64,000 bases of DNA from the NCBI GenBank assembly GCA_022826885.1, contig JAJDUB010000073.1, positions 65,388-129,387 of the forward strand, given 5' to 3'. The position numbers were made by a program, and so were the translations under genes. The notes beneath the pieces were generated by a model. That model searched no databases, had not been told where the DNA came from, and worked only from the letters and a program-made list of their open reading frames with translations. Below, piece by piece: positions 35,752 through 41,371 of the stretch. This DNA comes from Gammaproteobacteria bacterium (lineage in GTDB: Bacteria > Pseudomonadota > Gammaproteobacteria > Eutrophobiales > Eutrophobiaceae). Numbering within the stretch: position 1 is the stretch's first letter; every line of letters starts with the position of its first letter.

Positions 35752-36132
35752 CTGCTATTGCCTCTTGCGTTCTCAGCCGTCTTTAAGTTCCATTCATTTG
35801 GCCGGTGATACCCGATTACAGAGTCTGCCCCTCGGTTGTAGACAGGGGACAAACCATGGACGTGCTGTCCCCTCTGTTGCCAAAAAATAATTGATTTGTG
35901 AGTCTTCCCACATACATGCTGGCAAGAATGCATTACACTGTCAACATGATGGGCGCCCTTCATTTGCATAGCCTGCAGTCAGCTTGATTAGAGAGAGCGG
36001 TCAGCGTCTCTCCGGCCGTTGTGGGCGCCGCAAAACGCAATAAAACACCCCTCAAATGCCCGTTTCAAATCTCTAACACGGAATTTGGGGATAATATAAC
36101 CCACAAATTTGACAACCAGAGGAGATATCTTT

Positions 36133-36345
36133 ATGGACCGTAAATCCGATCTTGACAACCACGCTGATCAACTGAATCCAAATAACGACGCATACTGGGA
36201 TAGCCGAGCGTATGACGGACGCCCGGACGACTGGGAAGAACTTGTAAACGAAGATGAGCATGAGATATCGCAGGCAGATCTCGATAATCATGCTGACCAG
36301 CTTAACCCTAACTCCGACACTTACTCAAAATCGCGCAGCGGGTAG
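36133..36345 (+). CDS. small acidic protein with duplicated DLDNHADQLNPN-D-Y motif (hypothetical)
   Basis: 70 aa from ATG 36133, preceded by GAGGAG 8 nt upstream. The two motif copies are SDLDNHADQLNPNNDAYWDSR and ADLDNHADQLNPNSDTYSKSR. Confidence 0.55.
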   Translation: MDRKSDLDNHADQLNPNNDAYWDSRAYDGRPDDWEELVNEDEHEISQADLDNHADQLNPNSDTYSKSRSG

Positions 36346-37102: not shown

Positions 37103-37226
37103 TGTAACCTCCCTGCTTGTCCCTGTGGACTGGTAAATATTGATATAAACCTGATTGACGGATGAAGCCGTCAATCCCTGTCTCAACCCTACAGGAGGGG
37201 GGGCCAAGCGTCAACAAAAAAAGACA

Positions 37227-37542
37227 TTCGTACTTTTTTCCCAAAAATGTGAGTTTCCTCACATTTTTGTTGATTTTTTGCTTTTCAGGTTATCTGAAAC
37301 GGATAAAATCATCCTTGCCATAAGGAAACCAGGCGGTGGTCAGTCCGGCACGAACAAGAATAAACAACGCCGGATGACCGGTCGAATGGAATTCGGGATG
37401 TTGTATGCCCGCATGCCCGAGGGCGGCCCGGTTACTGCTTGCCAGGGCCACGGATCAGGGGCAGCCCAAGGGCGCCAGGGGGGTGGATACCTGTCTTCCG
37501 CTTAATGTCACCTCTCCACCCCCTTCTGGCAGGGGCATGACC
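37227..37542. repeat. copy 1 of a ~300-bp bipartite direct repeat (palindrome-bearing left module, variable middle, GC-rich structured right module)
   Basis: Aligns by eye with 38922-39218. The left ~95 bp and right ~157 bp are about 85-90% identical and the middle is divergent. The element ends in ..GGCAGGGGCATGACC in both copies. Confidence 0.85.
37245..37266. promoter_or_regulatory. perfect CRP/Vfr-type consensus palindrome AAATGTGA-N6-TCACATTT
   Basis: AAATGTGAGTTTCCTCACATTT matches all 16 half-site positions of the 22-bp CRP consensus AAATGTGATCTAGATCACATTT. Confidence 0.6.
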
Positions 37543-37567
37543 AGAAATTAATCACATAGAAATAACT

Positions 37568-37595
37568 TTGATTAACTAAAGCTATTTGCTATAGT
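37568..37595 (+). promoter_or_regulatory. candidate sigma70 promoter of the toxin-antitoxin pair
   Basis: TTGATT (37568-37573), a 16-nt spacer, then TATAGT (37590-37595), about 20 nt upstream of the GTG start at 37616. Pattern match only. Confidence 0.35.
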
Positions 37596-37615
37596 TTATA
37601 TAATGGACTAAAGCA

Positions 37616-37873
37616 GTGTATCGATTGATTATACGGAAACAAGCGATTAAGGCATTACAGGGCATGTCAGCCAAGGACTCCGGCCGTATTCGCCAGTTAC
37701 TGGATAGGCTGGCGGAAGAGCCTGAGCGACGCGATATTGATGTCAAGCCGTTACGAGGCAATCGGGGTTTCCGTCTGCGGACAGGTGACTACCGGGTAAT
37801 TTTTGATCGGGACGATCAAACACAAGTGATAGAGATTTTACGTATTGGTCCGCGTGGAGATGTTTATAAATAA
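37616..37873 (+). CDS. type II toxin, RelE/ParE superfamily
   Basis: 85 aa with ..LDRLAEEPERRDIDVKPLRGNRGFRLRTGDYRVIFDRDDQTQVIEILRIGPRGDVY, the classic RelE/ParE C-terminal pattern (R.G.YR.i...d......i..i.hR...Y). Confidence 0.85.
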   Translation: MYRLIIRKQAIKALQGMSAKDSGRIRQLLDRLAEEPERRDIDVKPLRGNRGFRLRTGDYRVIFDRDDQTQVIEILRIGPRGDVYK

Positions 37874-37888
37874 ATTGGGCAACGCATT

Positions 37889-38266
37889 ATGACTGAACCA
37901 CAAATTATTCGCGATAACAGAGGCAACCCGGCGTTCGCTGTAATCCCATGGCAGGAATATCAGCACCTGAAAGCGGGCAGCGCTGACGAGTTGCCAACCG
38001 ACGAAGAACTGTACGACGAAGCCAAATCCAGCACTGAGGAAAGCTTTCCCATTGAGGTAGCTGACCGTCTTGTGGCAGGGGAAAACCCGGTCAAGGTATA
38101 CCGCAACCTGCGAGGCTTGACGCAAACACAGCTCGCGGCGGCTGCGAATATCAATGCGGTTTACCTCTCACAAATTGAAACCGGGAAACGCACCGGGTCG
38201 ATAAAAACCCTGGCCGCCATAGCAAACGCCCTGAATGTCGCCGTGGATGATTTAAGGAAACCCTGA
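37889..38266 (+). CDS. antitoxin with C-terminal XRE-type helix-turn-helix
   Basis: 125 aa. RNLRGLTQTQLAAAANINAVYLSQIETGKRTGSIKTLAAIANALNVAVDDL is a Cro/C1-type HTH. The gene lies 15 nt downstream of the toxin (toxin-first, HigBA-like order). Confidence 0.8.
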   Translation: MTEPQIIRDNRGNPAFAVIPWQEYQHLKAGSADELPTDEELYDEAKSSTEESFPIEVADRLVAGENPVKVYRNLRGLTQTQLAAAANINAVYLSQIETGKRTGSIKTLAAIANALNVAVDDLRKP

Positions 38267-38342
38267 ACAAGCCTGTTCCTGTACCAGTTACGGGACAGAA
38301 ACCGAAGCGGGGTTTAAGATTGTAACACCAGCCGAAACCTTG

Positions 38343-38906
38343 TCAGCTTACTAGCTCGTACTCCTCCGTTTCCTCGCGAATCTCCAATGCATCCCTGGAA
38401 AGCAGGTCGCGGACTGCTTCATAAACTTCGAGATAATCCAATGACTTGCCGGACCGTAGTTGTATAAACCTGATGACGTGCGCCGGAGCGAGTCCGGGCA
38501 GGTTGAGCGACGTGTCAACCTCAAGCGGTCCTGGCTGGGCCTGTAAATCCAGGAAGGTTGCCGTGATTATCCGTCTCTGCGCGCGTCTGCGAATGTTCAA
38601 CTGCCAGAACTCGACCGCTCCCTTATCCCGGTAACTCAGGTACTTCTCTTTCGATTCATGCGTCAGTCCCACCTCAACCACCAGGTCGGATTCAGCCAGG
38701 GCAATTACCTCGTCCCTGCCTGCATGGAAGGCCACGTACTCCGACCCCAGGGAGTTGCGTTTAACCTCCTTCAGTCGTTTGCGCAACCTGTCTTCCACAC
38801 TCTGCAAGGAAGAGTCTTTCGGTAATGCCGTGGCGCTGCACATGATGTCGTCCCTCGATTTGAATAAAAGCTGTGTCAAGTATAGCAGGAAAGCGAAACA
38901 GGCCAT
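38343..38906 (-). CDS. Uma2 (DUF820)-like putative endonuclease
   Basis: SDLVVEVGLTHESKEKYLSYRDKGAVEFWQLN resembles the PD-(D/E)xK core of Uma2 proteins (PDLVVEV.S......D...K...Y...GV.EYW.vd). The start is uncertain; ATG at 38843 is an alternative. Confidence 0.5.
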   Translation of the reverse strand: MACFAFLLYLTQLLFKSRDDIMCSATALPKDSSLQSVEDRLRKRLKEVKRNSLGSEYVAFHAGRDEVIALAESDLVVEVGLTHESKEKYLSYRDKGAVEFWQLNIRRRAQRRIITATFLDLQAQPGPLEVDTSLNLPGLAPAHVIRFIQLRSGKSLDYLEVYEAVRDLLSRDALEIREETEEYELVS

Positions 38907-38921
38907 AAAACAACGCTACGC

Positions 38922-39218
38922 TTCGTACTTTTTTCCCGAAAATGTGAGTTTTCTCACATTTTCGCTGATTTTTTGCTTTTCAGTTTATCCGTGGTGAATA
39001 AAATCATTATTGCCTGAATGAAAGACGGCAACGGCGCTCCAAAATGGAGAACCCGCTAAATGGAATTCGGGTGGTTGTATGCCCGCATGCCCGAGGGCGG
39101 CCCCGGTCAGCTTTCGCCTGGGCCAGGGATCAAGGACAGCCTGAGGGCGCCAAGGGGGGTGGATACCTGTCTTCCACTTAATGTGTTCTCTCCACCCCCC
39201 TCTGGCAGGGGCATGACC
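38922..39218. repeat. copy 2 of the ~300-bp bipartite direct repeat
   Basis: See copy 1. It ends 20 nt before the stop codon of the oxidoreductase-aminotransferase fusion gene. Confidence 0.85.
38940..38961. promoter_or_regulatory. perfect CRP/Vfr-type consensus palindrome AAATGTGA-N6-TCACATTT
   Basis: AAATGTGAGTTTTCTCACATTT has both half-sites perfect. It lies 34 nt upstream of the longest Uma2-like ORF start on the minus strand. Confidence 0.6.
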
Positions 39219-39238
39219 GGTCGTCGGGACGGTAATTC

Positions 39239-41371
39239 TTACAACGCTTGCCGAATAATATCGCAAATCCTGTTTTGCGTTCCCTCCTCCAGGTACGGAT
39301 GCATAGGCAAACTCAGTACCGTTGCCGCTAACCGTTCGGAAACGGATAAATCCGGCGCAGACGGATAGCCGCGATAGGCAGTCTGCCTGTGCAGCGGTAT
39401 CGGGTAGTGCAGCGCGGTCGGAAATCCATTTTTCTTCAACTCCTCGGAAATTGCGTCACGTTCGTTTGATTTAACCGTATATTGCGCCCAGACAGAGGTG
39501 CGCCCCTCACGAACTACCGGAACATCGACCAGGTTTTCAAGCATCGAGGTGTAGCTTTGCGCAACCTGTTTGCGCAGGATGATCTCTTCCGGAAAAACAG
39601 AGAGCTTCTCGATCAATATCGCAGCCTGAATGGTGTCCAGCCTGCCGTTTATGCCGATATTCACGGCGTCGTGTTGATTCGCTCCCTTTCCATGTGCCCG
39701 CGTGCTTTTCAATTTGTCGGCGATTTCGTCGTCATCCGTAAATACCGCACCCCCATCGCCGTAACAGCCCAACGGTTTTGCCGGGAAAAAACTGGTGGTG
39801 GTAAGCTCCCCCAGTGTTCCGACCTTGTTGCCGTCCAATTCGGCGCCGAAACTCTGTGCGCCATCACAGATAACAAACAATCCGCGCTCCTCGGCAAACC
39901 GGTTTATCCCACTGTAATCGGCCGGCTGTCCGAACAGGTCGACCGGAATTATTCCCCTGGGTCTCAGACCATGCCGGACTGACTCGGAGACCGCGGCTTT
40001 CAGGCTTGCCATGTCAAGCAGGAAACAGTCTGCGTCAACATCAACGAAAACAGGTGTCGCCCCCAGCAAGGCGACAACTTCCGCGGTTGCGACGAAAGTG
40101 AACGAAGGAACAAAAATGGCATCACCCGGACCTGTATCATGGGTCATTAATGCCATAAGCAGGGCATCCGTGCCGCTGGCGCAAGTGATGACATGCCCGG
40201 CGCCTGTGAAATCGGACAGCCTTTCCTCAAGCTCCCTGACTTCCGGACCCATGATGTACTGGCCGTGATCGAGTATCTTTTGTATTGCCTGAGGTATCTT
40301 CCCGCCCAATCGTTGTTGCTGCGCCCTGAGATCAACGATAGCCGTTTTATTCAGCGCTGGATTTGCATTATTTATTGCCTGATACGAATGATTCCCGCGG
40401 ATTTCCTGTTCCGATGCCTGTAGTACCTTCAACACGCGGATCGCTTCACGGCCGTCAGTACGGCAGCCTGTCCTTCCCGCAATGCAGTCCAGGAAATGTT
40501 CCAACTCCTGTCGTAACGGCTCAACCGGAGTCACGGTAACTGCCTCGGCTTCAGCTTTGCCGGGCCCGTGCAGGCCGTTTTTACAGAGGAGGTCGTCTTT
40601 ATAAATCAGTAACTTGCGGTCCCATTCCTGGGTATCATTAAAAATTGCCATGCCTTCGTCACCCACGACCACCAGTTCCTGCACCTTGTAAGGGTGCAGC
40701 CAGGAAACAAAAACATGGGCATTCTCCCCACCGGGAAATGACAGGTAGATCGCAGCCACGTCAGCATACCGGGAATGAAGAAAAAACCCGCCTACGGCAG
40801 AAATCCTGTCCGGTTCGTCACCTACCAGCGACAGGATCATGGAAGCGTCATGGGGAACAAAGCTCCAGAGTATATTCTCCTCGCGCCTGACTTTCCCCAA
40901 ATTAGAGCGATGTGCATAGATATTACGCAAACGCCCCAGTTCACCCTGTGCCACCAGTTCCTTCAGCCTGATAAACGCAGGGTGGTATTGCAGGACGTGC
41001 CCTACCATCAACACCCGTGCCTGATTCTTCGACAACCTGTTTAAATCTTCAGCAGCGCCGACATCCATGGCAAGGGGCTTCTCAACAAACACGTGTTTTC
41101 CTGCCAGCAGCACTTTCCTTACAATTTCCGAATGTGTTTCTACCGGTGTCGCGACGGCCACCGCGTCAATATTCGCATCCCGGATCACCTCTTCGAAAGT
41201 GCATGTCCTTACGTTGTACTGTCCACCCGATTGCCGCGCCAGTTCCCGGTCCGAATCGCAGACCGCGGCCAATGCCCCCAGGTCGGAAAAATTGCGCACC
41301 AGGTTCCTGCCCCAGTAACCGCAGCCGACCACGGCCACGCGCGCCGGCGTTTGTTCTGTCATACTCATCAA
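39239..41371 (-). CDS. fusion protein: Gfo/Idh/MocA NAD-dependent sugar oxidoreductase (WbpB-like) plus DegT/DnrJ/EryC1 PLP aminotransferase (WbpE-like)
   Basis: 710 aa in a single ORF. The N-terminal half has VAVVGCGYWGRNLVRNF and the Gfo/Idh/MocA fold. From about aa 345, IVDLRAQQQRLGGKI..ILDHGQYIMGPEVRELE..ITCASGTDALLMAL..TTSFFPAKPLGCYGDGG is DegT-type. Confidence 0.85.
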   Translation of the reverse strand: MMSMTEQTPARVAVVGCGYWGRNLVRNFSDLGALAAVCDSDRELARQSGGQYNVRTCTFEEVIRDANIDAVAVATPVETHSEIVRKVLLAGKHVFVEKPLAMDVGAAEDLNRLSKNQARVLMVGHVLQYHPAFIRLKELVAQGELGRLRNIYAHRSNLGKVRREENILWSFVPHDASMILSLVGDEPDRISAVGGFFLHSRYADVAAIYLSFPGGENAHVFVSWLHPYKVQELVVVGDEGMAIFNDTQEWDRKLLIYKDDLLCKNGLHGPGKAEAEAVTVTPVEPLRQELEHFLDCIAGRTGCRTDGREAIRVLKVLQASEQEIRGNHSYQAINNANPALNKTAIVDLRAQQQRLGGKIPQAIQKILDHGQYIMGPEVRELEERLSDFTGAGHVITCASGTDALLMALMTHDTGPGDAIFVPSFTFVATAEVVALLGATPVFVDVDADCFLLDMASLKAAVSESVRHGLRPRGIIPVDLFGQPADYSGINRFAEERGLFVICDGAQSFGAELDGNKVGTLGELTTTSFFPAKPLGCYGDGGAVFTDDDEIADKLKSTRAHGKGANQHDAVNIGINGRLDTIQAAILIEKLSVFPEEIILRKQVAQSYTSMLENLVDVPVVREGRTSVWAQYTVKSNERDAISEELKKNGFPTALHYPIPLHRQTAYRGYPSAPDLSVSERLAATVLSLPMHPYLEEGTQNRICDIIRQAL

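Follow-up and report, generated by a model that had tools for sequence, protein, structure and literature searches.

Exact CRP-consensus palindromes are predicted to serve the promoter of a putative repeated RNA gene in uncultured Gammaproteobacteria

The window analyzed here, a stretch of 64,000 nucleotides, contains a direct repeat of about 300 nt in two copies. Alignment of both regions gave a mean column identity of 82%, with a 21-nt deletion in copy 2, and a 22-bp palindromic box is located at equal offset in each. On the plus strand, each copy consists of a T-run, CCC, an A-run, the box, a T-rich 15-nt tract, and the hexamer TTTTCA, followed by a 16-nt spacer, TAAAAT, about 8 nt, and then a G that opens a GC-rich stretch of about 225 nt. 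The features are given below; promoters and transcription starts are consensus predictions.

37227-37543, plus strand: whole repeat unit, copy 1 (direct repeat)
38922-39219, plus strand: whole repeat unit, copy 2 (direct repeat)
37245-37266, no strand assigned: CRP-type 22-bp box, copy 1, AAATGTGAGTTTCCTCACATTT; exact consensus, box kept in 12 of 12 element copies
38940-38961, no strand assigned: CRP-type 22-bp box, copy 2, AAATGTGAGTTTTCTCACATTT; centre at 38950.5
37267-37281, plus strand: T-rich tract between box and -35, copy 1, TTGTTGATTTTTTGC; equivalent in copy 2 at 38962-38976
37282-37309, plus strand: sigma-70-like promoter, copy 1, from the promoter scan; -35 TTTTCA at 37282-37287, 16-nt spacer, -10 TAAAAT at 37304-37309
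38977-39004, plus strand: sigma-70-like promoter, copy 2, from the promoter scan; TTTTCA, 16 nt, TAAAAT
37317-37542, plus strand: predicted structured noncoding transcript, copy 1, from folds; 5' hairpin of type A, predicted +1 at G 37317
39012-39218, plus strand: predicted structured noncoding transcript, copy 2; 5' hairpin of type B, 21-nt deletion within the hairpin
38343-38843, minus strand: Uma2-like (PD-(D/E)xK) gene, divergent from copy 2; assigned by blastp among the loci and by weak Pfam Uma2 matches on full-length relatives

The box of copy 1 starts 143 nt from the ATG (37102) of a DUF1640/CCDC90-like gene on the minus strand. That of copy 2 starts 34 nt from the farthest ATG (38906) of the Uma2-like gene and 97 nt from the likely real one (38843), and TAAAAT lies 38 nt past each box (37304-37309 and 38999-39004). 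The distances to the flanking minus-strand genes and to TAAAAT had been given correctly in the earlier note. A terminator-like hairpin (GATTGACGGCTTCATCCGTCAATC plus a T-rich tail) was seen on the minus strand at 37153-37176, where it separates the DUF1640/CCDC90-like gene start from element copy 1; it argues against minus-strand transcription from the box region into that gene. The Uma2-like gene (ATG 38843, Shine-Dalgarno sequence GAGGGA) encodes an internally deleted 166-aa form of a multi-copy family of about 270 aa; a 166-aa Uma2-like protein, P0055, is encoded on a contig of 199552 nt. Full-length relatives matched Pfam Uma2 below the gathering score and the PADLOC candidate defense family PDC-S17 with an E value of 1e-10. 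The spacing between the box and the promoter region of the Uma2-like gene differs by about 36 nt between copies, and the box is thus not in register with this gene. A ParE/RelE-type toxin gene (37616-37873) and an HTH_3 antitoxin gene (37889-38266), both on the plus strand, are located between the two repeat copies and are preceded by a promoter-like site of their own, TTGATT-16-TATAGT, at 37568-37595.

Both boxes conform to the CRP consensus. A search for exact AAATGTGA-N6-TCACATTT returned exactly these two sites in the window, and each matched the pattern AAATGTGANNNNNNTCACATTT with 0 mismatches, that is, at 16 of 16 consensus positions of the 22-bp two-fold symmetric CRP/Vfr-type operator. 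When up to two mismatches were tolerated, the same two palindromes and no further match in the window were obtained. The exact box is expected 0.03 times per window by chance, and two or more matches occurred in 0 of 100 dinucleotide-preserving shuffles. The observation of two perfect CRP-consensus sites, made in the earlier note, is real and far beyond chance. Because both boxes are copies within one repeat family, they do not represent independent events. Elsewhere in the window, at 35897-35939, a one-mismatch box, TGTGAGTCTTCCCACA (site 35897-35912), is followed by exactly 21 nt and then by TACACT. It has no -35 element, its spacing is that of class II promoters as found beside the crp-like gene (see below), and a small ORF (36134-36345) containing repeated DNHADQLNPN-like motifs follows about 190 nt downstream of it. 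This may be a third Crp-type site or a chance occurrence, 1.4 one-mismatch sites being expected.

Relatives of the element were collected for comparison. A scan with the RNA core, covering one genome per species, found it in three metagenome-assembled genomes of uncultured Gammaproteobacteria, and protein-guided look-ups added a fourth genome. The resulting set comprised 12 copies from five related uncultured Gammaproteobacteria genomes, the window included. At least six copies lie in three loci from contig CBDBDW010000002.1, and one locus (L005) has three element units within 5 kb. Element blastn searches against PLSDB plasmids and INPHARED phages gave no match, and a 20-mer of the RNA core gave three chance matches only in JGI metagenomes, all inside unrelated coding sequences. 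The threonyl-tRNA synthetase of the window has an identical counterpart on a contig of 199,552 nt and is 84-95% identical to proteins on many contigs of metagenome-assembled genomes, and the names of related contigs (ROBB21, SHAF22, KELL22, RHO3_bin_19) suggest sponge metagenomes as their origin.

Arrays of the element were observed at L005 750-6500, L001 2800-7000, and L026 6700-9300. In each unit, a Uma2-like gene and the RNA occupy opposite strands and are followed by cargo that varies: PIN, an AAA_16 ATPase, a DUF3782/PD-(D/E)xK protein, methylase-HNH, or IS elements. The plus-strand genes downstream of the RNA vary accordingly: PIN and DUF3782/PD-(D/E)xK protein genes in L005, and IS plus methylase-HNH genes in L026. 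Three genomes have their last copy directly adjacent to the end of the same polysaccharide-cluster gene, which encodes a DegT aminotransferase. At L002 1266-2545, an IS of about 1.25 kb with a DDE_Tnp_1 transposase, terminal repeats CAGGGCAA/TTGCCCTG, and a target duplication of about 9-10 bp (ATCCAAACCC) is inserted between the -35 and -10 hexamers of one element copy and parts the box from the RNA.

The 12 copies show no insertion or deletion between the box and the predicted start. Variability within this region, counted as alignment cells departing from the majority base across the 12 copies, was distributed as follows.

16 consensus positions of the box: 2 of 192 cells variable (1%)
Central six positions of the box (N6): 2 of 72
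-35 hexamer: 0 of 72
-10 hexamer: 3 of 72 (4%)
T-rich tract: 14 of 180 (8%)
Promoter spacer: 39 of 192 (20%)
Discriminator: 14 of 84
27 nt upstream of the box: 70 of 324 (22%)

Both variable consensus cells stem from a T-to-C change in the two copies of L026, which are diverged and carry the box AAATGTGAGTTTTCCCACATTT in an unchanged promoter layout. Thus, the half-sites were kept while neighboring DNA drifted; the central N6 is also almost invariant, and the positions that immediately flank the 22-mer differ between copies, most of the changes being uncompensated. Judged from the alignment, the pattern is that expected of a protein-binding site plus a sigma-70 promoter. The power of this conservation is limited because the copies are close relatives.

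A box without function, conserved through recent duplication or horizontal spread and matching CRP fortuitously, would be in keeping with the overall identity of the copies (75-95%) and with the conservation of the central N6. Within the very same copies, however, 17-22% of the cells are variable in the upstream flank, spacer, and discriminator as opposed to 1% in the box; furthermore, the box is found again at an unrelated locus whose flanks are likewise unrelated (see below), and an exact 16/16 consensus is expected only 0.03 times per window. We hold this explanation to be highly improbable.

The box stands in a fixed relation to the plus-strand promoter predicted within the element. Its centre in copy 1 (37255.5) precedes the -10 hexamer by 48.5 bp, and the same layout was found in 12 of 12 copies. 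The centre would lie at -60.5 if transcription started at 37316 and at -61.5 if it started at the conserved purine 37317, a purine being present 69 nt past the start of TGTGA in 12 copies. With the promoters as predicted, this spacing corresponds to that of class I CRP-dependent promoters. The place that the alpha-CTD of RNA polymerase takes in such promoters is occupied here by the T-rich tract, which by analogy may serve as its docking site.

The stretch of about 225 nt behind the promoter folded in silico into a 5' hairpin and a multi-branched domain closed by AUGCCC...GGGCAU. The 5' hairpin occurs in three sequence versions (A, B, and an L026 type), each of which forms a long hairpin in the same place. 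Folding of the alignment predicted 34 pairs in the 3' domain, three of them with compensatory double changes. The possibility that the repeat is a coding sequence was ruled out by 1-nt indels between copies inside the most conserved block, and the stretch is therefore considered noncoding. An identity as a Csr/Rsm-type RNA was rejected since dense GGA loops are lacking. Rfam 15, searched at gathering thresholds over the whole window, yielded no family for the downstream transcript, and chance-level matches only were returned for 37150-39350 at E values up to 10. The variable 5' part of the RNA showed complementarities of 12-15 nt with the window and all loci, which is chance level. An intrinsic terminator that would set the 3' end of the RNA was not seen past the stretch, so that read-through from the Crp-type promoter into the plus-strand toxin-antitoxin cargo is possible after copy 1. 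Because of the hairpin maintained in three versions, the compensatory pairs, and the conserved promoter directly upstream, we assign the stretch with moderate confidence as a putative RNA gene. The repeat as a whole looks like a self-contained plus-strand transcription unit.

The box was also encountered in a second, unrelated context. It lies 50-100 nt past the stop codon of a gene for a Crp-like protein in L010, L016-L021, L023, and L024, in the following versions.

L010: TGTGAGTTTTCTCACA
L016-L021: TGTGACTTTTCTCACA
L023: TGTGAGTTTTCTCACA
L024: TGTGGTGTTTCCCACA

All four versions are followed by exactly 21 unconserved nt and then by TAGACT (CAGACT in L016), behind which a conserved noncoding stretch of about 200 nt extends up to a convergent Na/H-exchanger gene. 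The box centre is 29.5 bp from the hexamer and would lie at -41.5, a class II geometry predicted from sequence. The noncoding stretch is a candidate for a second transcript (L010 1851-2110, L016 3766-4010, L023 3815-4050, and L024 3760-4000), starting about 7 nt past TAGACT with GCCTGTCCACAAGATGAGGTTTGTTACG and containing hairpins with CAGGA-type loops and visible compensatory changes; an Rfam search of the crp-adjacent loci gave no match for it. With boxes at -60.5/-61.5 and at -41.5, two different predicted RNA genes of the clade thus carry the box, each at one of the two canonical CRP activation distances.

Despite the unrelated surrounding DNA, a T-run, 1-3 C/G, and an A-run precede the box in both contexts (window 37232-37247 and 38927-38942; L010 1853-1866; L016 3766-3781; L023 3815-3831). 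This motif may extend a recognition or bending element. Such flanks, together with the multi-copy nature of the element (as on CBDBDW010000002.1) and the perfect or near-perfect consensus of all copies, could also mean that the sites mainly titrate the regulator, as high-affinity decoys or as architectural sites that bend DNA, and do not activate promoters. Neither strict spacing to conserved -35 and -10 hexamers nor a conserved structured transcript downstream would be needed for such a role, and we consider it improbable as the main function; it is compatible with activation and does not exclude it.

The palindrome also has the appearance of an intrinsic (rho-independent) terminator or an insulator hairpin, which at the 5' edge of the element would halt plus-strand read-through before the RNA promoter. 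A terminator scan flagged both window copies, each having a stem of 12 bp, a loop of 4 nt, and a T-run that begins 4 nt further on, and the calculated hairpin energies were -13.4 and -15.8 kcal/mol in the window and -9.7 to -15.8 kcal/mol across the element copies. In L010, L016, and L023, the box follows the co-directional crp-like gene at the distance stated above. In window copy 2, compensation is seen at one outer pair of the stem, and a symmetric A-to-G/T-to-C change in both arms of the L024 box fits a hairpin equally well. However, the stem of 10-12 bp is AT-rich with only 4-5 G-C pairs, and the window offers nothing for it to terminate, both genes upstream of the copies there being on the minus strand. 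The crp-adjacent copies do have a co-directional gene but no U-tract, and their hairpin weakens in three of four cases, to -3.9 (L016), -7.5 (L024), and -9.1 (L023) kcal/mol. Furthermore, the variants in L016 (TGTGAC...CTCACA) and L026 (TGTGA...CCACA) break pairs that are not compensated, the outermost pair is mismatched in five copies, and the fixed distances from box centre to hexamer (29.5 and 48.5 bp) would be left unexplained. In summary, neither a stem plus U-tract past a co-directional gene nor a stem maintained by compensatory changes was found, and there is little chance that termination accounts for the palindrome.

Proteins with a restriction-endonuclease fold often recognize palindromes, and a divergent Uma2-like gene, complete or reduced to its N-terminal part, precedes 8 of the first 10 copies. 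The box might be bound by another dimeric protein, either the Uma2-like PD-(D/E)xK nuclease, as a site of autoregulation or cleavage, or an HTH antitoxin. This appears quite improbable to us: window copy 1 and L004 have no upstream Uma2-like gene, no box accompanies the Uma2 homologs of L009 and L012, the box adjoins the crp-like operon where no Uma2 or toxin-antitoxin gene is next to it, and its sequence is the exact consensus of a different, well-understood family. Uma2 as an obligatory partner of the element was likewise rejected, given homologs without the element nearby (L009, L011, and L012) and two element copies without Uma2.

A candidate for the protein that binds the box is encoded in the clade. 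On related contigs, the gene for a Crp-like regulator of 239-246 aa belongs to a conserved operon that also encodes a class III cyclase and a phosphotransferase (APH); the regulator gene was found on eight contigs whose threonyl-tRNA synthetase is 84-89% identical to that of the window. In an alignment with the E. coli CRP sequence, eight clade members keep the residues of the cNMP pocket (G71, E72, R82, S83, and S128 in E. coli CRP numbering) as well as the residues that contact TGTGA (R180, E181, and R185), the helix reading H-R-E-A-I/V-S/T-R. A tblastn search of the window and the loci with the same sequence found no significant CRP homologue in the 64-kb window. For CBDBDW010000002.1 (4,918,764 nt) and OZ244846.1 (4,346,575 nt), there was no Crp-like orthologue among the matches and cluster members listed. 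Locus L026, which belongs to ERZ25072445:contig_4 (1,143,210 nt), carries two element copies, and the Crp-like protein P0244 is encoded on a contig of 1,143,210 nt; judged by this equal length, regulator and element apparently share one contig. The earlier note had held that its reading would fall if, among other things, the genome lacked a CRP-family regulator with a TGTGA-recognizing helix. Such a regulator, with R180, E181, and R185 kept, is present at the level of the clade and apparently on the one element-bearing contig.

Taken together, these observations point to each palindrome as probably being an operator for a cNMP-dependent activator of the Crp family in the promoter of the repeat's own RNA gene. 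Centred at -60.5/-61.5, the box would be bound by a dimer of the Crp-like protein, which would bend the DNA and recruit RNA polymerase through the alpha-CTD of the enzyme, positioned on the T-rich tract, in the manner of class I promoters such as lac P1. A weak -35 (TTTTCA) and a good -10 (TAAAAT) precede the predicted GC-rich RNA of about 225 nt, closed by a long-range helix. Through class I recruitment at the box, RNA output would follow the cyclic-nucleotide signal of the cyclase encoded beside the Crp-like gene. Binding, activation rather than repression, the transcription start, the identity of the nucleotide, and the function of the RNA are inferences in this model.

The original proposal of CRP control was consequently retained in one part and revised in another. 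A genuine operator of the Crp family type is indicated by the box being the most conserved part of the promoter in 12 copies, by its recurrence at class II distance, and by the conservation of the TGTGA-contact residues. The idea that the minus-strand genes are the target, or that the element imports control wherever it lands, was not supported: the box is found at varying distances from the flanking minus-strand genes, whereas the distance to the element's own plus-strand promoter is fixed in 12 of 12 copies. The comparative evidence thus supports the CRP-family reading well, with the plus-strand RNA promoter of the element as the predicted fixed target. Activation by CRP at class I and class II promoters is itself a textbook mechanism; what is new is the putative RNA family and its possible partnership with a Uma2-like nuclease.

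This partnership can be taken further. The Uma2-like nuclease gene and the divergent, cNMP-Crp-controlled RNA of about 225 nt could form a previously undescribed two-part module with one shared intergenic control region, in which the RNA would act as antitoxin, cofactor, or guide, and of which arrays would multiply, together with toxin-antitoxin and nuclease cargo, in variable islands bordering the O-antigen cluster. We regard this as a rather unlikely conjecture; a literature search on Uma2 yielded no report bearing on an RNA partner. If it were true, a second-messenger signal would gate a defense or addiction system in sponge symbionts. Confirmation of the operator itself would provide a sequence-level handle on cyclic-nucleotide signaling in an uncultured, sponge-associated gammaproteobacterial clade, in which a cyclase accompanies the Crp-like regulator and the best-predicted targets of the latter are at least two RNA genes. 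It would also define a multi-copy structured RNA family with a clean, testable promoter and show that perfect-consensus CRP boxes can be the norm of a lineage, which would help regulon models for unculturable organisms.

When compared with known systems, the window copies resemble intrinsic terminator hairpins in having an inverted repeat followed by a T-run on the plus strand, but they differ by an AT-rich stem, the lack of a gene to terminate, stem-breaking variants, and the missing U-tract in the crp-adjacent context. The GacA/UvrY box (TGTAAG-N6-CTTACA) of the Rsm/Csr RNAs is likewise a palindrome upstream of several paralogous noncoding RNA genes. In the element, however, the hexamers are 4 nt apart (16-bp dyad TGTGAG-N4-CTCACA) and not 6 nt (18 bp), the half-site is TGTGA instead of TGTAAG, and the RNA has no dense GGA-loop array. 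An identity with the GacA/UvrY box was rejected on the dyad spacing (16 versus 18 bp). The enterobacterial small RNAs CyaR and Spot 42 are controlled by CRP, the former being activated and the latter repressed. They share with the element, as predicted here, the arrangement of a noncoding RNA gene with a CRP site in its promoter and an RNA output linked to cAMP, but they have no sequence or Rfam similarity to the element RNA, which is about 225 nt long, GC-rich, multi-copy, free of an intrinsic terminator, and located in variable islands by nuclease and toxin-antitoxin genes.

Class II promoters of the galP1 type (centre at -41.5) are matched by the crp-adjacent boxes of L010, L016, L023, and L024 and by window 35897-35912, all of which have 21 nt, then a -10-like hexamer, and no -35; this assignment is a prediction from sequence and does not describe the geometry of the two window boxes. 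These resemble lac P1 of E. coli, a class I CRP-dependent promoter with CRP centred at -61.5, in the TGTGA-N6-TCACA dyad about 61 bp upstream of the predicted start, the weak -35, the good -10, and the A/T-rich tract between activator and -35. The distance from centre to hexamer is 49.5 bp at lac and 48.5 bp here, 1 bp closer. The regulator of the clade is a Crp-like protein of 240 aa that is about 27% identical to E. coli CRP over 158 aligned residues and is encoded beside a class III cyclase. In further distinction from class I promoters, the predicted product is a noncoding RNA that a genome encodes several times. Finally, natural CRP sites of E. coli depart from the full 22-bp consensus, whereas the box of the element matches it perfectly.
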